Assembly (NCBI GenBank): GCA_039194995.1
Contig: JBCCVR010000004.1
Span: 18,883-82,882, forward strand
Length of the DNA stretch: 64,000 nucleotides
Reading direction: 5' to 3'
Source of the DNA: Cyanobacteria bacterium P01_E01_bin.42
Lineage (GTDB): Bacteria > Cyanobacteriota > Cyanobacteriia > Cyanobacteriales > Spirulinaceae
Positions 46,881-53,759 of the stretch are shown piece by piece (the stretch's first letter is position 1; each line of letters starts with the position of its first letter). The notes under the pieces were generated by a model. The model was not told the DNA's origin. It worked only from the letters and a program-made list of their open reading frames with translations, and searched no databases. Both the position numbers and the translations under genes were made by a program.

Positions 46881-48023
46881 ATGAAAAGACGCTGCTTCTT
46901 CCAACTGGCAACGGCAATATCAGGCTCGATTCTCTTGGGCAAAAATCTGGTTGGCTGCACGGCAAATTCCCAAATAGAAAATAACAGCACTGCGACTATG
47001 GCTGCGAATTCTTCTTTTTGCATGCCCGATGAAGCTGCACCCCATTTGTGTACTTGGATGGCATTTCGTGCCAACCCAGATGTTTATACTTTTGGACGCG
47101 AACACGTTTCAGCAGTCCAAGATACTATCGCTCGAGTTGCCAAAACAATCGTTCAATACGAACCCGTGAAAATGTTAGTTTGCGAGGAAGATTATGACAT
47201 TGCGCGGCGGAAATGTGGTTCTGATGTCGAGTCGATCGTGCAACCGATTGACGATCTGTGGATGCGAGATACAGGACCCATTTTTGTGGTGAACGAACAA
47301 AGGGAAAAGGCAGCCGTTGACTTTAATTTTAATGGCTGGGGAAACAAAGCGTACCACGAGAATGATGCAGAAACTGCCCCATTTGTTGCCAAGAAAGCGG
47401 GAGTACCTCTCATTACTACAAAACTCACCTGCGAGGGCGGTGGGATTGAGGTAGATGGTCGCGGTACGGCAATTATAACGGAAAGCTGTATTATTAACGA
47501 CAATCGCAATCCGGGCTGGAGTAAAATCGATTGCGAGCGAGAATTAAAAGCATTATTGGGACTGCAGAAAATCATTTGGTTGCCCGGTATTCGCGGGGTC
47601 GATATTACCGACGGACATACGGATTTTTATGCCCGTTTTACCCGTCCCGGAGTTGTTGTTGCCGGGTACGATCCCAATCCCGAATCTCCCGACCATCTCA
47701 TAACAAAAAAGCACCTTGAAATCTTAGAGTCCCAAACCGATGCTGATGGAAACGATCTTGAAGTTGTCGTCTTAGAAGGGCCGAGTAGAATCCGTGAAGG
47801 ATATGATTGGGATGATTTTTTTGCAGCCGGATATATTAACTTTTACGTCCTCAATGGTGCTGTTCTGCTGCCCGAATTTGGCGATCGCTATTGCGATCGC
47901 AATGCCAAAGAAATTTTAGAAGGACTATTCCCCGATCGCGACATTATTCAACTCAATATCGATGAAATTGCGGCCGAAGGCGGTGGCATTCACTGCATGA
48001 CGCAACAAGAACCTTTAGTTTGA
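46881..48023 (+). CDS. Tat/lipoprotein-exported agmatine deiminase (Porphyromonas-type peptidyl-arginine deiminase) family protein, copy 1
   Basis: MKRRCFFQLATA...LVGC signal. C-terminal catalytic GGGIHCMTQQEP, WMRDTGP, TDGHTDF motifs. Start moved to the Met that begins the twin-arginine signal. Confidence 0.75.
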   Translation: MKRRCFFQLATAISGSILLGKNLVGCTANSQIENNSTATMAANSSFCMPDEAAPHLCTWMAFRANPDVYTFGREHVSAVQDTIARVAKTIVQYEPVKMLVCEEDYDIARRKCGSDVESIVQPIDDLWMRDTGPIFVVNEQREKAAVDFNFNGWGNKAYHENDAETAPFVAKKAGVPLITTKLTCEGGGIEVDGRGTAIITESCIINDNRNPGWSKIDCERELKALLGLQKIIWLPGIRGVDITDGHTDFYARFTRPGVVVAGYDPNPESPDHLITKKHLEILESQTDADGNDLEVVVLEGPSRIREGYDWDDFFAAGYINFYVLNGAVLLPEFGDRYCDRNAKEILEGLFPDRDIIQLNIDEIAAEGGGIHCMTQQEPLV

Positions 48024-48136
48024 AAACAAAATCTGGCAAGATTCGGAGTCGATCTCCCCATCAAACTGAGAAAAGGGTAGAATAAAGCCAGTAAAAACGT
48101 GGCGATATTTCTCCGATCGAATAATACTCCAATATT

Positions 48137-49267
48137 ATGAAAAGACGCTCTTTTCTGCAATTGACAGCAGCAACATCCGGATCGATTCTCTTGGGCAAAA
48201 ATCTGGTTGGCTGCGCGGCAACTCCTCAAGTCGAAAATCATACTGCTGCTATGGCTGCAAACTCTTCTTTTTTCATGCCCGACGAAGGCGAACCCCATTT
48301 GTGTACTTGGATGGCATTTAGTGCCAGTCCGGATATTTGGGGACGCGAATATGCCGAGGGAGTCCAAGATAATCTCGCTGAAATTGCCAACACCATCGCC
48401 CGCTACGAACTCGTGAAAATGTTAGTTCGCGAGGAAGATTACGATATTGCCCGGCGGAAATGCGCCTCAGAAGTCGAGTTAATCATTCAACCCATTGACG
48501 ATTTGTGGATGCGAGATACTGGCCCCGTTTTTGTCGTCAACGAACAGGGAGAAAAAGCAGGCGTTGACTTTAATTTTAACGGTTGGGGAAACAAGCAAAG
48601 GCACGAGCTCGATGCAGAAGTCGCCCAGTTTGTCGCCCGAGAAGCGGGAGTTCCCGTCATTAACACAGAACTCGTCTTTGAAGGAGGAGGAATTGAGGTA
48701 GACGGTCGCGGCACGGCAATTGTAACGGAAAGTTGTATTATCAATGACAATCGCAATCCGGGCTGGAGTAAAGCCGATTGCGAAAAAGAATTAAAAGCAC
48801 TGCTGGGACTGCGGAAAATCGTTTGGTTACCCGGTATTCGTGGGGCTGACATTACTGACGGACATACGGATTTTTACGCCCGTTTTGCCCGCCCCGGGGT
48901 TGTCCTTGCCGCATACGATCCCGATCCCGAATCTCCCGACCATTCAGTGACGAAAAAGCACCTTGAAATCTTAGAAACCCAAACCGATGCAGATGGAAAC
49001 GAACTCGAAGTTGTCGTGTTAGAGGCACCGACAAGAATTCGCGAGGGGTATAGTTGGGATGATTTTGCAGCCGGATATATTAATTTTTACGTCTGCAACG
49101 GTGCCGTGCTGCTGCCCGAATTTGGCGATCGCAATGCCGATCGCAATGCTAAAGAAGCTCTAGAGAGATTGTTTGACGATCGCGACATCATCCAACTCAA
49201 TATTGACGAAATAGCGGCAGGCGGCGGCGGGATTCACTGTACGACCCAACAAGAACCTTTAGTTTAA
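48137..49267 (+). CDS. Tat/lipoprotein-exported agmatine deiminase/PAD family protein, copy 2 (tandem paralogue)
   Basis: MKRRSFLQLTAA...LVGC signal. GGGIHCTTQQEP. Highly similar to the preceding gene. Confidence 0.8.
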   Translation: MKRRSFLQLTAATSGSILLGKNLVGCAATPQVENHTAAMAANSSFFMPDEGEPHLCTWMAFSASPDIWGREYAEGVQDNLAEIANTIARYELVKMLVREEDYDIARRKCASEVELIIQPIDDLWMRDTGPVFVVNEQGEKAGVDFNFNGWGNKQRHELDAEVAQFVAREAGVPVINTELVFEGGGIEVDGRGTAIVTESCIINDNRNPGWSKADCEKELKALLGLRKIVWLPGIRGADITDGHTDFYARFARPGVVLAAYDPDPESPDHSVTKKHLEILETQTDADGNELEVVVLEAPTRIREGYSWDDFAAGYINFYVCNGAVLLPEFGDRNADRNAKEALERLFDDRDIIQLNIDEIAAGGGGIHCTTQQEPLV

Positions 49268-49357
49268 ACTTTTTTTACAAAAGTAATAAAATTTACCTCC
49301 AACTATTAGGGGGTATTTTTTTACTTGCGATAGAATACCAAAAACGCATCTATTTTC

Positions 49358-50701
49358 ATGGAATCACAAAATAAAATTGCTTTTACAGAAGCACTTTTAC
49401 ATTATCAACAAGCGATCGCGATTTTAAATACAAATGAATCCCCAAATCTTGCCCAAATTCTGACTGCATTAACCAGTCGCGATGTCGTAGAAGCAGCGCG
49501 GACGGATTTATCAGAACTCAATGGAGAGCGTCTTGCCGAACTGGTGGAACTGGACGATCGCTTACAACAATGCGCGGGCGCGATCGCCGCCCATCCCCAA
49601 ATCGAACAATGTCGAAATACCCTACAGCCGCATCAAACAGCTTGGTGGTGGTTTCTCAAAGCCCCACCGCCGCCCCCGCCAAAACCCTCAAAATACGCTA
49701 AGTTATTCGAACAGGATTGGCTCTGGAATTTCCTCACCGTTGTTTGTTTGGTGGGTGCGGGAACTTTTGCCACAGACACCGTGCAAAAATTGTCGAGCGA
49801 AAATCTAAACTTATTACAAACTTTTAGTACGATCGGTCAAGGTGCGGGACTCGTTCTCGTGACGGGTGGAACCCTAACCGACAAAGGACAAAAAGTCGTT
49901 CGCGAGACCCTCGCCGATATGGGCATTAAACCCAAATATCAAGCAGAGGCGACTTTGGGTTTCGCTGCGTTGTTATTGGGTGTCACCTATGCTGCCAATG
50001 CGTCTATTCCCAATCTCGGCCAATCATTCTATCGTCGGGGGTTAAGCCATTACAATAACGGTTACGTCGATAAAGCCAGACTCAGTTTTGAAGAGGCACT
50101 CTCCCTCGCTCCCGATGATGCCAACATTAATGTTGCTTTGGGGAATGTTTACGAAACTTTTATGATGCAAGAAAAAGCAGAAGAGCAATATTCCGAAGCG
50201 ATTTTAGCGGGTATACCGGAAGCACTGAATGGACTAGGACGAACGAATCTGCGATTAGCAACAGATTTTGACCGTCTGGTTCGTGCAGAAGGACTATTTC
50301 GCTTGGGATTGGCTCAATCTGACCTTCCTGATTATCTTATCGCTGCAATGCACGGACATCTGGGATTTACCCTCATTCGTCAAGTGGAATCAGGCAATTT
50401 TTCAGAGGTCATCATTCAAGCAAGATATACCGAAGCAGAACAAAACTTCAAAGCTGCGATCGCACTCGAAAGCAAGATCGATGATGAACTTCCGGGAATG
50501 GGGATGAGTTATTGTTATCTCGGAATTTTATATGACAAACAAGAAAAAACTGCGGCTGCTCGGGAGGCTTGGCAAGATTGTCAGAACAAAGCCTTCCCTG
50601 CCAGTTATAACGAGTATGAAGATATTGTTATTTATGGTACGCCAGAAATTGCCGAAAATGTCAATACGACGAAAATTATACGATTCGTTCAAAGCGATTG
50701 A
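49358..50701 (+). CDS. hypothetical membrane protein with poly-Pro linker and C-terminal TPR-like repeats, copy 1
   Basis: AWWWFLKAPPPPPPKP, then hydrophobic helices and TPR-like repeats. Paralogous to the next gene. Confidence 0.5.
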   Translation: MESQNKIAFTEALLHYQQAIAILNTNESPNLAQILTALTSRDVVEAARTDLSELNGERLAELVELDDRLQQCAGAIAAHPQIEQCRNTLQPHQTAWWWFLKAPPPPPPKPSKYAKLFEQDWLWNFLTVVCLVGAGTFATDTVQKLSSENLNLLQTFSTIGQGAGLVLVTGGTLTDKGQKVVRETLADMGIKPKYQAEATLGFAALLLGVTYAANASIPNLGQSFYRRGLSHYNNGYVDKARLSFEEALSLAPDDANINVALGNVYETFMMQEKAEEQYSEAILAGIPEALNGLGRTNLRLATDFDRLVRAEGLFRLGLAQSDLPDYLIAAMHGHLGFTLIRQVESGNFSEVIIQARYTEAEQNFKAAIALESKIDDELPGMGMSYCYLGILYDKQEKTAAAREAWQDCQNKAFPASYNEYEDIVIYGTPEIAENVNTTKIIRFVQSD

Positions 50702-50983
50702 GAATCGCGATTCTTAATAGATCTAGAATATGAGAGGCTCAGTCTCTTTTGTGCAATTTAGAAATTGAGTCGGTTCGGGTTAAAGCGATTGTGCAACTCA
50801 GTAACAAGTCAGAAACAAGTCAGTCAATCCCAGTCGGTAACTCAGTAAGCGATAGGTTTGACTGAATAATATCAGTTTGAGTTAAGCGATTTAACTCCTT
50901 AGACGACCGATCGGGGTTTCAGTCGATCCCGACCTCGCGTTAGAGATTGGTAATTTTCCCTAAAGTCACCCAAGCCAATTATC

Positions 50984-52351
50984 ATGACAGTCCATCTCAA
51001 TCCTCCCATTACGGAAGCCCTCATGGGTTACCAGAACGCGATCGCCGAACTGAGTCTGTACAGATCGCCCCAACTGCCTCGAGTCTTGGCGGTTTTATTG
51101 GCACGAGACGAGGTGGAAGCCTTACGGAATAATGGCTCGGAATTGACCGGAAATTCCTTGGCCGAATTGGTGGCCCTTGATGCTCGCTTGCGAGAATCGG
51201 CCGGGGCGATCGCGTCTCATCCCCAGTTCGAACAATGTCGTCAGACGAGACAGCCACCAGAAAGCGCTTGGTGGTGGTTTTTGGAAGTCCCGCCTTCTCC
51301 GCCACCCAAAATCGCTCATTTCGATTGGTTGTGGGGCTTTCTAACCGTTGCCTGTTTGGTGGGTGCGGGAACTTATGCAACGAATACAGTCAACGCATTT
51401 TCCCATGAAAGCCTAGCTTTATTAAAAACATTTAGTACCATCAGTCAAGGTGCGGGTTTGGTTTTAGTCACGAGCGGCACATTAACCGATAAAGGTCAAA
51501 AAGTCGTTCGCAATAGCCTCGTGAAAATTGGCATCAGAGGGGAATACGAAGCTGTCGCAACTTTTGGTATCGCCGCAATTTTGTTCGCTGCTACTTATGG
51601 TGTAAATGCTTTCATTCCCAATTTTGGCCGATATTTTTATTTTCAAGGCTTGAAAGATTATGAAAATGGTTATATCTCTCGAGCGCAAGCCAATTTTGAA
51701 AGGGCGGAATCTCTGGCACCTCAAAGTGTAGAGATCGATCTGGCCTTGGGAGATGTTTATGAAACTTTTTCCAAGCACGAACAAGCCTATAAATTGTACG
51801 AAGTCGGGATTAGAGCGGGGAGACCTTATGCTTTTAATGGTGCGGGACGAGCGCAAATGCGAATGGCAACGACCATTGACGATCTCGTGCAAGCAGAATC
51901 AATATTTCGCTTGGGATTAGCACAGCCGACTGCCCGAGATAATTTAAAATACTACATTTACGGTCATCTCGGATTTACTTTGATTCGTCAAGTGGAATTA
52001 GGCGGCTTCTCCGAAGCAGAAAATCAGATGCTTTACAATCGAGCCGAAGATGCCCTCCTGAAATCCCTCGCTCTAGAAGACAAGGTTGATGAAGAACTAG
52101 CAGGTTGGGGAATGAGTTATTGCTATCTGGGGATTCTCTACGACCAACAAGGGAAAGCCAATCCAGCGCGATCGGCTTGGCGAAATTGTCAAGATAAAGC
52201 CAAACCTGCCAGCAAAGATCAATATCAAGATATTGTCAGTTATGCCAAGCCCGAAGTTGCAGAGAAGATTGATGTGACCAAGATCGTGCAAGTCAGTCCC
52301 TCGAATTTCTTAGAGACAGAAGAGAGCATACAACCCCAATCAAACAATTGA
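50984..52351 (+). CDS. hypothetical membrane protein with TPR-like repeats, copy 2 (tandem paralogue)
   Basis: Collinear with 49358-50701 (e.g. ALL.YQ.AIA.L....SP.L...L.A...R..VEA.R; AWWWFLE.PPSPPPK). Confidence 0.5.
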   Translation: MTVHLNPPITEALMGYQNAIAELSLYRSPQLPRVLAVLLARDEVEALRNNGSELTGNSLAELVALDARLRESAGAIASHPQFEQCRQTRQPPESAWWWFLEVPPSPPPKIAHFDWLWGFLTVACLVGAGTYATNTVNAFSHESLALLKTFSTISQGAGLVLVTSGTLTDKGQKVVRNSLVKIGIRGEYEAVATFGIAAILFAATYGVNAFIPNFGRYFYFQGLKDYENGYISRAQANFERAESLAPQSVEIDLALGDVYETFSKHEQAYKLYEVGIRAGRPYAFNGAGRAQMRMATTIDDLVQAESIFRLGLAQPTARDNLKYYIYGHLGFTLIRQVELGGFSEAENQMLYNRAEDALLKSLALEDKVDEELAGWGMSYCYLGILYDQQGKANPARSAWRNCQDKAKPASKDQYQDIVSYAKPEVAEKIDVTKIVQVSPSNFLETEESIQPQSNN

Positions 52352-52454
52352 GCGGTCACATCAATTCACCGATTTAAAATTACGCTCTCTTGTTCAAAGG
52401 GAGGCTGTAAATTATGCTACAATAAAGGAATTTTAGATTATTTGTATTTCATTT

Positions 52455-53759
52455 ATGGTTGCTTTGGAGAACTCTACACCAACCCTAACAGAAATCGCTC
52501 GGGAAACTCGCAATGCAGCCCGACAGCTTGCCGTTTTATCGACGGAAGAACGCAATGCGGCATTAGAGGCGATCGCGGCAGCCTTAAAGGCATCTACTGC
52601 CGTAATTCAAGCCGCCAATCTTGCCGACTGCGAAAGAGCAGAAAAAGAAGGCATTGCCAAGGCGTTATACGCGCGTTTGAAGCTGGGAGAAACAAAATTA
52701 GATTCCGCTATCGCCGGGGTACGGGATGTTGCGAAATTAGCCGATCCGGTGGGTACGGCACAAATTCAGCGCGAGTTGGATGAAGGATTGATTCTCAAAC
52801 GCGTCACCTGTCCTCTCGGAGTCTTGGGGATTATTTTTGAAGCACGTCCCGAGGCACTCATTCAAATTACCAGTTTGGCGATTAAATCGGGCAATGGGGT
52901 GATTCTCAAGGGGGGGAAAGAAGCGCTCGAGTCCTGTCGGATATTAACTAAAATTATTCGCGAAGCCTTAGAAGGAACAAAAGTCGATCCCAATGCAGTC
53001 CAACTATTGACCACGCGAGAAGAAATTCGCGCTTTATTAGAGTTAGATGAATATGTAGATTTAATTATTCCGCGCGGTTCTAATGCTTTCGTTCGCTACG
53101 TGCAGGATAATACCAGAATTCCGGTTTTAGGTCATGCCGATGGAATTTGCCATCTTTATGTCGATCGCGCTGGAGATTTAACGAAAGCCATTCCCATTAT
53201 TATCGATGCGAAGGTGGGTTATCCGGCGGCTTGTAATGCGATCGAAACGTTACTCGTTCATGAAAGGATTTCGAGGGATAATTTGCAGAAAATTGCCGAG
53301 GCTTTACAGGAAAAGAATGTGAAATTAAAGGGATGCGATCGCGCTTCGATTCTCTTAAATATCGAATCTGCAACCGAGGAAGATTGGCAAACCGAATATA
53401 GCGATCTGATTCTTTCAATTAAAATTGTAGACTCGACAGAAGCCGCGATCGCCCATATCAACCAATATGGCTCTAAACATACCGATGCGATCGTCACAGA
53501 AGATGAAGAGGCTGCAATTCAATTTTTAAATCGAGTTGATGCGGCTGGCGTGTATCATAATTGTTCCACTCGGTTTGCAGACGGTTTCCGCTATGGTTTC
53601 GGCGCAGAAGTTGGGATTAGCACTCAACAAATGCCCCCGAGAGGTCCGGTAGGACTAGAAGGGTTAGTCACTTACAAATATCAAGTTACGGGAAATGGTC
53701 ATATCGTGGCAACCTATTCCGGCGCAAATGCCAAACCGTTTACCCATCAAGATATTTAG
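52455..53759 (+). CDS. proA: glutamate-5-semialdehyde dehydrogenase (gamma-glutamyl phosphate reductase)
   Basis: 434 aa; ProA-type N-terminus ([15 protein letters not shown]), LIIPRGS motif, aldehyde-dehydrogenase fold. Confidence 0.9.

Follow-up and report, generated by a model that had tools for sequence, protein, structure and literature searches.

The window analysed here, a stretch of 64,000 nt from the marine cyanobacterial metagenome-assembled genome (MAG) Cyanobacteria bacterium P01_E01_bin.42, carries two adjacent genes of the agmatine deiminase (AgD) family, arranged head to tail on the + strand. Copy 1, the 'a' paralogue (46881-48023, +, 380 amino acids, ATG start), encodes a signal-bearing enzyme of this family, and copy 2, the 'b' paralogue (48137-49267, +, 376 amino acids), is a conservative orthologue of a widespread clade of exported agmatine deiminases. 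The two products are 79% identical over their full length, and the tandem of highly similar paralogues that an earlier note on this DNA had placed at 46881-49267 is exact in its coordinates. Copy 1 is a 100% match to the NCBI protein P0009 and copy 2 to P0001, both recorded under 'MAG: Cyanobacteria bacterium P01_E01_bin.42' with the label 'agmatine deiminase family protein'. The mechanical open reading frame (ORF) of copy 1 reaches back to a GTG at 46704; this start was rejected, the 59 extra residues having no counterpart and the homologues, including the orthologue in a second MAG, SBLK, beginning M-x-RR. Because the homologues and P0009 begin at MKRR, the ATG at 46881 was taken as the start of copy 1; for copy 2, NCBI gives an ATT start 3 nt upstream of 48137. 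As read from the sequence, the signal region of copy 1 (MKRRCFFQLATAISGSILLGKNLVGC; 46881-46958, +) has its arginine pair at residues 3-4 and the codon of Cys26 at 46956-46958, and that of copy 2 (MKRRSFLQLTAATSGSILLGKNLVGC; 48137-48214, +) has the Cys26 codon at 48212-48214. The codons of the catalytic cysteines are those of Cys372 in copy 1 (47994-47996, +; motif GGGIHCMTQQEP), which aligns with Cys366 of the plant agmatine iminohydrolase (AIH) via copy 2, and of Cys368 in copy 2 (49238-49240, +; motif GGGIHCTTQQEP), which was aligned to the catalytic Cys of the structures 6nib and 3h7c. Both proteins end in GGGIHC(M/T)TQQEPLV, copy 2 terminating 8 residues past its catalytic Cys.

In a profile search with PF04371 (cut-off 25 bits), copy 1 scored 345.1 bits (E 5e-103) and copy 2 367.1 bits (E 1e-109), with matches spanning profile positions 2-321 of 321, and the proposed assignment to the agmatine deiminase/peptidyl-arginine deiminase family with an intact GGGIHC(M/T)TQQEP motif is thus borne out from end to end. 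The scores against TIGR03380, the equivalog profile of canonical AguA, were 264.9 bits for copy 1 and 285.4 bits for copy 2, both below the cut-off of 381.8. Judged by these profiles, the two proteins are members of the PF04371 family and not of the canonical cytoplasmic AguA equivalog, and their position outside that clade also holds. Canonical AguA shares with them the fold, the catalytic Cys/His/Asp and the two guanidinium-binding Asp residues, but it has no signal peptide, and the window proteins have a shorter connection from repeat IV to repeat V. The nearest solved structures by sequence are agmatine deiminases (6nib, 3h7c/1vkp, 1xkn, 2ewo and 2jer; E 1e-63 to 1e-57), and the identity to canonical agmatine deiminases/iminohydrolases (E. 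faecalis AgDI 2JER, plant AIH 6NIB, 3H7K) is 33-36%. An AlphaFold2 model of copy 2 reached a predicted local distance difference test (pLDDT) value of 84.4, with residues 11-42 below 50 and modelled as disordered. The top Foldseek matches of this model were 6nib, 1vkp/3h7c and 2jer (template modelling (TM) scores 0.80-0.88, E 1e-37 to 1e-34), which, together with the model itself, supports a five-bladed alpha/beta propeller (pentein) fold. In the Medicago enzyme (MtAIH), the catalytic residues are Cys366, His224 and Asp226, the guanidine is bound by Asp94, and Asp89 also takes part (PMC6447857); C368, H243, D245, D127 and D122 align with Cys366, His224, Asp226, Asp94 and Asp89, respectively, and are invariant among the sequences examined. 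The plant Asp220, which binds the agmatine amine (PMC6447857), is replaced by Ile239 in the window proteins, with an Asp at the +2 position. The acidic residues at the pocket entrance, D122, D238 and D241, are kept. Such an acidic entrance suits a cationic tail rather than a carboxylate.

Both copies begin MKRR(C/S)F(F/L)QL...SGSILLGKNLVGC, an extension of ~45 residues that comprises a hydrophobic stretch, the tetrapeptide LVGC and a disordered linker; alignments to the crystallised agmatine deiminases start only at query residue 40-44, and the N-terminal ~45 residues have no counterpart there. The motifs of twin-arginine translocation (Tat) type are KRRSFLQ and KRRCFFQ, with a maximum 12-residue hydropathy of 1.5 and 1.74. 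Almost all of the best 120 database homologues begin M-x-RR-x-F-L-Q/K, and an RR followed by a hydrophobic stretch is found at the equivalent place in 171 of 222 family sequences, the remainder being mostly truncated start calls, RK/RQ variants or Sec-type signals. As estimated from these sequences, the conservation of the RR signal is far above chance expectation, and a Paraburkholderia orthologue passes the Tat-signal profile TIGR01409 (17.4 bits vs a cut-off of 16.7). The LVGC with Cys26 fits, in both copies, a minimal lipobox, defined as [LVI][ASTVI][GAS]C within residues 15-35 and a basic residue close to the N-terminus. Among the 43 close homologues with complete N-termini, L-x-[GAS]-C is present in 28 and a non-canonical box in 5, and the 10 that lack the Cys form the Okeania/Dapis clade. 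Cleavage by signal peptidase I around G-C-A would be an equally possible fate as lipidation. The extracytoplasmic location proposed in the earlier note appears likely, because the clade-wide RR signal is common to the window proteins and to Agu2A', a Tat substrate of Pseudomonas aeruginosa; the case for export rests on this homology and on how well the RR motif is conserved.

The exported clade is very widely distributed. A scan of one genome per species returned at least 589 loci encoding relatives, and the best 80 of them belong to cyanobacteria, beta-, gamma- and alphaproteobacteria, Chloroflexota, Rhodococcus/Mycolicibacterium, Deinococcales, Acidobacteriota and Nitrospira; most of these 80 matches start at query residue 1-3 and hence include the signal. 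A tblastn search of a plasmid collection gave a match in a P. aeruginosa record, at a locus with a divergent LysR gene followed by a signal-less AgD family protein of 346 amino acids, aguB, an extracellular solute-binding protein and a second AgD family protein of 373 amino acids. The last protein of this operon starts MMTRRHFLQRLGASAGLGAALTLGLEFGSPRGQA, and it is because this sequence is identical to the signal peptide printed for PA14_48450/Agu2A' (PMC6085387) that we take the comparator to be Agu2A'. Copy 2 is 53% identical to it (E 2e-130, residues 1-372, signal included); its identity to the signal-less, Agu2A-like product of that operon is only 42%. A protein search seeded with the Paraburkholderia orthologue returned no Pseudomonas among its top 120 matches. 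Agu2A' is reportedly periplasmic and its operon agmatine-induced, as Williams and colleagues are said to have described. It is counted among eight experimentally identified Tat substrates of P. aeruginosa, with credit to Williams et al. 2010 (PMC6085387), and the agu2ABCA' operon has been described as responding to environmental agmatine (PMC4211729). Like the window proteins, Agu2A' has a PF04371 domain after a twin-arginine signal, and its pocket residues (W/Q/G and D-I-T-D-x-H-x-D) are those of copy 2. It differs in the end of its signal, which is Ala-rich, of signal-peptidase-I type (…GQAAAAD) and without a Cys where the window proteins have LVGC; in its C-terminus, HCVTKHMSRA; and in RDYGG, which stands against RDTGP on the window side. 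Furthermore, the gene of Agu2A' closes an operon under LysR control that also encodes a cytoplasmic AgD, AguB and a binding protein, whereas the window genes form a solitary tandem pair with none of these partners in the 64 kb. On sequence grounds, both window genes are new and recently duplicated cyanobacterial members of a type of exported agmatine deiminase that is already known and very widespread.

The neighbouring ORFs of the best 80 loci were clustered and annotated. A divergent LysR regulator occurs at 20 loci, PotF/PotD-type binding proteins at 8 and N-carbamoylputrescine amidase (aguB) at 4, and two-component systems and TetR regulators recur. Paraburkholderia solitsugae has the exact agu2ABCA' layout, with a Tat-type AgD that is 63% identical to the window protein, an aguB that scores 461.7 bits against TIGR03381 (cut-off 410) and a binding protein that matches PotF (E 1.5e-109); an Undibacterium relative adjoins a gamma-aminobutyric acid transaminase, an aldehyde dehydrogenase and a MocR-type regulator. 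The gene contexts of these relatives suggest an agmatine/putrescine metabolism whose first step is periplasmic. Since Agu2A' is exported and relatives 53-63% identical are found in operons with aguB and PotF-like proteins, the substrate would be agmatine and not peptidyl-arginine, and the role, which the earlier note had left open on the grounds that agmatine deiminases are normally cytoplasmic, is narrowed accordingly by the precedent.

More than one family member is present at 19 of the 78 fetched loci with a family ORF called, the window included. Tandem pairs elsewhere combine a Tat-lipoprotein with a Tat protein in Burkholderiales, or a protein with a Sec signal and one with a Tat signal in Thiothrix and Thiolinea. 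Like the window pair, they consist of two adjacent exported family genes on the same strand. They are ancient and divergent, the Sec and Tat partners being ~30% identical and the Burkholderiales upstream members forming a separate tree branch, and are often LysR-linked, whereas the window pair, at 79% identity, is a recent duplicate. The arrangement of the window genes is not unusual, and the finding is real but largely ordinary, the family being large and already annotated and its Pseudomonas member Agu2A' a proven exported enzyme. In Burkholderiales and relatives (loci L021, L039, L055, L059, L078 and L082), LysR-linked tandem exported pairs recur, in which the upstream gene has a textbook Tat signal and lipobox (…LLSACGGG) that passes both the minimal and a stricter lipobox test, where the window copies pass only the minimal one, and the downstream one a Tat signal whose cleavage site is Ala-rich; no characterisation of these pairs could be found. 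A further neighbour, a Met-zincin of ~950 amino acids (DUF4953 + DUF5117), is encoded upstream on the same strand in loci L008-L011 (Dapis, Microcoleaceae, P01_H01_bin.35 and Okeania; positions ~4.1-7.7 kb of each locus), directly upstream in L009-L011, and the deiminase orthologues of these four loci have no lipobox Cys.

The origin of the pair can be followed in the MAG SBLK, which has the same block of two AgD genes, two paralogous genes for membrane proteins of tetratricopeptide repeat (TPR) type and proA. In a neighbour-joining tree, copy 1 and SBLK_a form a group with a bootstrap of 100, copy 2 and SBLK_b one with 93, and the four sequences join with 69, inside the cyanobacterial branch of an exported clade that includes Agu2A' and excludes the signal-less paralogues. 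The synonymous divergence (dS) is 0.64 between paralogues and 0.63-0.64 between orthologues, and the ratio of nonsynonymous to synonymous divergence (dN/dS) is 0.09-0.18 for all pairs; in the 'a' lineage dN is ~1.8-fold higher, with a dN/dS of 0.16. The duplication is lineage-specific and common to the window MAG and SBLK, and both copies are under purifying selection. Because paralogue dS is close to orthologue dS, the duplication would date from around the time when the two MAGs separated; the pair is taken to have arisen recently, in their common ancestor.

The two copies have diverged to a different degree from the family. Copy 1 departs at 14 positions from the consensus kept by at least 90% of the family, and copy 2 at 5. 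Four of the copy 1 departures are common to SBLK_a, three of them being W68Y, Q154A and G362E, at positions where W68/Q154/G362 is present in 327 of 339 family sequences (~96%), Agu2A' and the cytoplasmic paralogues among them. An insertion of two amino acids after residue 68 is also common to copy 1 and SBLK_a, and the residues of copy 1 that handle the guanidino group are all unchanged. In a HMMER alignment to 6nib and 3h7c, positions 68, 154 and 362 correspond to Trp36, Glu129 and residue 360 of the plant AIH; there, Asn35, beside Trp36, contacts the gate loop, Glu129 lies in the mobile 122-136 loop, and a hydrogen bond of residue 360 holds the terminal amine of agmatine, bacterial enzymes recognising the distal amine differently (PMC6447857). 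The only other multi-site variants at the three positions are Y/T/N, in the upstream, Sec-signal partners of four tandem pairs from Thiothrix, Thiolinea and an acidobacterium, which are ~30% identical to copy 1 and the Tat clade. The genes of this Y/T/N subfamily lie in every case just upstream of a Tat-type copy (L023 6853-7977, L051 6850-7968, L066 6780-7910 and L058 6734-7873). Copy 1 is the more derived of the two, and its substitutions suggest an altered distal substrate pocket and possibly a changed specificity.

We propose that the two genes probably encode exported agmatine-deiminase precursors of the Agu2A' type, which would act on agmatine outside the cytoplasm. The analysis shows the gene structure, the domain, the catalytic residues, the homology to a proven Tat substrate, the conserved signal, the operon setting of relatives and the purifying selection; the export route, the lipidation, the substrate and the physiological role in this organism are those that we infer. 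The precursor would consist of a twin-arginine signal up to Cys26 (MKRR, a weakly hydrophobic h-region and a Lys in the c-region), a disordered linker of ~20 residues and a complete five-bladed pentein domain with the Cys/His/Asp residues and two guanidinium-binding Asp. The enzyme would fold, and probably oligomerise, in the cytoplasm, and would then be carried by the Tat translocase across the cytoplasmic membrane or, conceivably, the thylakoid membrane instead, after which it would be anchored by a lipid at Cys26 or else cut by signal peptidase I close to that residue. Outside the cytoplasm, it could hydrolyse the guanidino group of agmatine to N-carbamoylputrescine and NH4+, so that the cell would gain ammonium and an importable ureido-amine and external agmatine would be removed. 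Copy 2 would keep the ancestral pocket, and copy 1, with its remodelled distal pocket, may prefer a related guanidino-amine.

Several observations weigh against this proposal. For Agu2A' itself, the documented point is that it is a Tat substrate (PMC6085387); its periplasmic location and its activity are reportedly described by Williams et al. 2010. Of the twin-arginine signals described in the earlier note, the MKRR and the clade-wide RR conservation stand, but in the hidden Markov model (HMM) searches with Tat-signal profiles copy 2 stays below threshold (PF10518, 16.4 bits vs a cut-off of 22.7; TIGR01409, 14.6 vs 16.7) and copy 1 has no match to either profile. The lipobox of the earlier note is ambiguous, and the membrane tethering that it proposed is uncertain: LVGC fits the minimal pattern but fails a stricter PROSITE-type pattern, in which the six positions ahead of the box must be free of charged residues and which is violated by Lys21 (-5) and Asn22 (-4); 4 of 44 close homologues pass it, as do the Burkholderiales 'lipoTat' paralogues, and the Cys itself is missing in the Okeania/Dapis orthologues. 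The TIGR03380 scores below cut-off mean that agmatine specificity is not guaranteed for either protein. The cyanobacterial gene is usually alone, with variable neighbours of which none is conserved beyond very close relatives, and the genes of an agu2ABCA'-type operon (LysR, cytoplasmic AgD, aguB and binding protein) do not flank the cyanobacterial orthologues. Searches of the 64-kb window by tblastn with the AguB, the PotF-like binding protein and the GabT of relatives returned no match, a Pfam sweep of 34 other window ORFs gave no polyamine or arginine families among the 25 listed of 56 matched families, and the putrescine or agmatine transporter that the earlier note had suggested looking for nearby was not found in the window. 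There is also no site of NtcA type (GTAN8TAC) upstream of either gene, and such sites are not enriched in cyanobacterial upstream regions (1 in 23, against a background of ~0.04 per 300 bp). Control by nitrogen through NtcA was for these reasons rejected, and, because of the missing upstream sites, a nitrogen-scavenging role is without regulatory support.

Other explanations must be weighed against the export of two agmatine deiminases. The most serious of them, which we consider possible albeit less probable, is that the pair is sub- or neo-functionalised, copy 2 being the agmatine enzyme and copy 1 either acting on another guanidino-amine (a shorter, longer, hydroxylated or di-guanidino analogue) or serving as a differently tuned subunit of a hetero-oligomer. 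It is favoured by the Y/A/E residues of copy 1 and its SBLK orthologue in place of W68/Q154/G362, together with the 2-aa insertion, and by the plant AIH sites that align with them, which close over the terminal amine of agmatine or hydrogen-bond it (PMC6447857). The 14 consensus departures against 5, the ~1.8-fold higher dN of a lineage that nevertheless keeps a dN/dS of 0.16, and the finding that the Y/T/N variants are also upstream members of tandem pairs speak in the same sense. However, the pocket was mapped by sequence alignment to a plant enzyme that is 36% identical, bacterial enzymes are said to recognise the distal amine differently (PMC6447857), and all guanidino-handling residues are unchanged. 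The parallel with the Y/T/N proteins may, at ~30% identity to copy 1, reflect general divergence. An improbable variant of export is that the lumen of the thylakoid is where the same enzymes are tethered, their substrate being a guanidino metabolite from inside the cell and not external agmatine. In cyanobacteria, Tat and lipoprotein processing also serve the thylakoid membrane, with lumenal lipoproteins such as Psb27 and CyanoQ, and no uptake or pathway genes nearby tie the pair to scavenging. Yet members of this clade that carry this kind of signal are widespread in proteobacteria, actinobacteria, Chloroflexota and Deinococcales, which have no thylakoids, and there the enzyme could only be periplasmic or on the surface and is linked to periplasmic binding proteins.

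It is very unlikely that the proteins are peptidyl-arginine deiminases of the Porphyromonas type (PPAD), which would citrullinate C-terminal arginines in the periplasm or at the cell surface. The exported PPAD shares with them the pentein fold and the family name in Pfam, 'Porphyromonas-type peptidyl-arginine deiminase', and the secreted-type Met-zincin upstream at four Okeania/Dapis/Microcoleaceae loci could yield Arg-terminated peptides, a linkage that is, however, restricted to one narrow clade. The P. gingivalis PPAD is a remote match both in sequence (E ~1e-6 vs 1e-63 for agmatine deiminases) and in structure (rank 24 or lower, TM 0.69, 20% identity). It is also larger, with crystallised chains of 417-438 residues, and carries an Ig-like domain and a C-terminal domain for type IX secretion; these extra C-terminal domains are absent from the window proteins of 376-380 amino acids. 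The relatives in operons with aguB and a polyamine-type binding protein, and the retention of the acidic entrance residues D122, D238 and D241, also argue against a peptidyl substrate. Hardly more credible is the view that these are ordinary cytoplasmic agmatine deiminases for putrescine biosynthesis, with an extension that has no function or a true start further downstream. The Tat HMM scores below cut-off would fit it, some database homologues are annotated with shorter N-termini, and cyanobacteria use a cytoplasmic agmatine deiminase with an N-carbamoylputrescine hydrolase (PMC2242806). Against this, the RR and the hydrophobic stretch are kept across phyla, as they are in the DNA of the two paralogues. 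Most of the short homologues seem to owe their length to a start called too late, within the h-region. The nearest relative to have been characterised has been proven to be a Tat substrate, and the window proteins, which do not reach the cut-off of the aguA equivalog, form a cluster distinct from the signal-less paralogues in the operons of relatives.

Several candidate regulatory features surround the pair. Just 3' of the 732-aa gene that precedes copy 1, a GC-rich hairpin read from the sequence (GGGCAGG-CAATA-CCTGCCC, followed by TTTCCC; 46671-46689, +) probably marks off that gene from copy 1; having a short T-run, it was passed over by the terminator scan. Upstream of copy 1 lies a promoter-like TCGAAA-17-TATGAT (46804-46832, +), a consensus match only, in a block conserved with SBLK. 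The spacer between the two copies contains a TAGAAT box resembling a -10 element (48078-48083, +) within its 3' ~75 bp, which are near-identical in SBLK, and this suggests by inference only that copy 2 may have its own promoter and leader. On the 3' side of copy 2, the terminator scan found a terminator-like hairpin with a T-run (49294-49325, +) that parts the pair from the downstream genes for TPR proteins. A perfect GTA-N8-TAC palindrome, GTAATAAAATTTAC (49283-49296), similar to an NtcA site, is located in the gap that separates the copy 2 stop codon from the first TPR gene and overlaps the start of this hairpin; the window has 9 such sites vs 4.4 expected, and the palindrome may be due to chance. 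A search of 44000-53000 against Rfam, for instance for guanidine riboswitches, gave no match at E <=1.

The gene directly upstream of copy 1 (44465-46663, +, 732 amino acids) has a weak XFP match (E 6e-13) and scores 86 bits against the NCBIfam phosphoketolase models, whose cut-offs are 777-1518; with phosphoketolase/transketolase profiles matched weakly, it looks like a divergent thiamine-diphosphate enzyme. The SBLK locus is without this gene and has a VapC/helix-turn-helix pair in its place. Directly downstream of the deiminase genes is a second tandem pair of paralogues (49358-50701, 447 amino acids, and 50984-52351, 455 amino acids, both +). In each protein, a conserved N-terminal region is accompanied by a proline-rich segment, WWWFL..PPPPP, by hydrophobic stretches and by a TPR-like part at the C-terminus; TPR profiles matched only the first of the two. 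This pair also lies 3' of the deiminase pair in SBLK and was not seen beside the gene at any other locus. Further upstream are a fused pstC-pstA (643 amino acids) and pstB (41450-44287, +), and in Spirulina sp. CCY15215 (L004 3499-7374) pstS-pstC-pstA-pstB is directly upstream of a single orthologue; as a conserved neighbour, the pst operon was set aside, its occurrence in two lineages only being judged probably a coincidence. An ORF of 861 amino acids (37619-40204, +) has the domains of a Major Vault Protein (Vault repeats E 6e-63, MVP_shoulder 2e-53, Vault_2, Vault_3 and Vault_4), and this predicted homologue of a eukaryotic-type vault protein is unusual in a cyanobacterial MAG. Among the 34 ORFs scanned, family-level matches also point to KaiA, KaiC, a globin, a molybdopterin oxidoreductase and a DUF4915 protein, the presence of KaiA and KaiC fitting a cyanobacterium.

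The findings on the gene pair do not overturn current understanding. If the proposed export is true, filamentous marine cyanobacteria would place enzymes of agmatine-deiminase type outside the cytoplasm, and ammonium could be released from external agmatine without its prior import. Agmatine is a common decarboxylation product in decaying biomass, and the pair would add modestly to what is known of how microbial mats scavenge organic nitrogen. The exported deiminase of Agu2A' type is no curiosity of Pseudomonas: it forms a very large clade that spans many phyla, often occurs as tandem exported paralogues and is labelled in databases only as 'agmatine deiminase family protein'. The possible shift in specificity of copy 1 is the sole new element beyond annotation. 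We regard it as rather unlikely that copy 1 and its SBLK orthologue have newly evolved into exported guanidino-hydrolases for some compound other than agmatine; were this the case, the pair would work outside the cytoplasm as two enzymes that draw nitrogen from at least two guanidino compounds in marine mats, and the recurrent tandem exported pairs of other phyla may reflect the same logic. The pocket changes of copy 1 offer a cheap and testable handle on the choice of substrate in the family.

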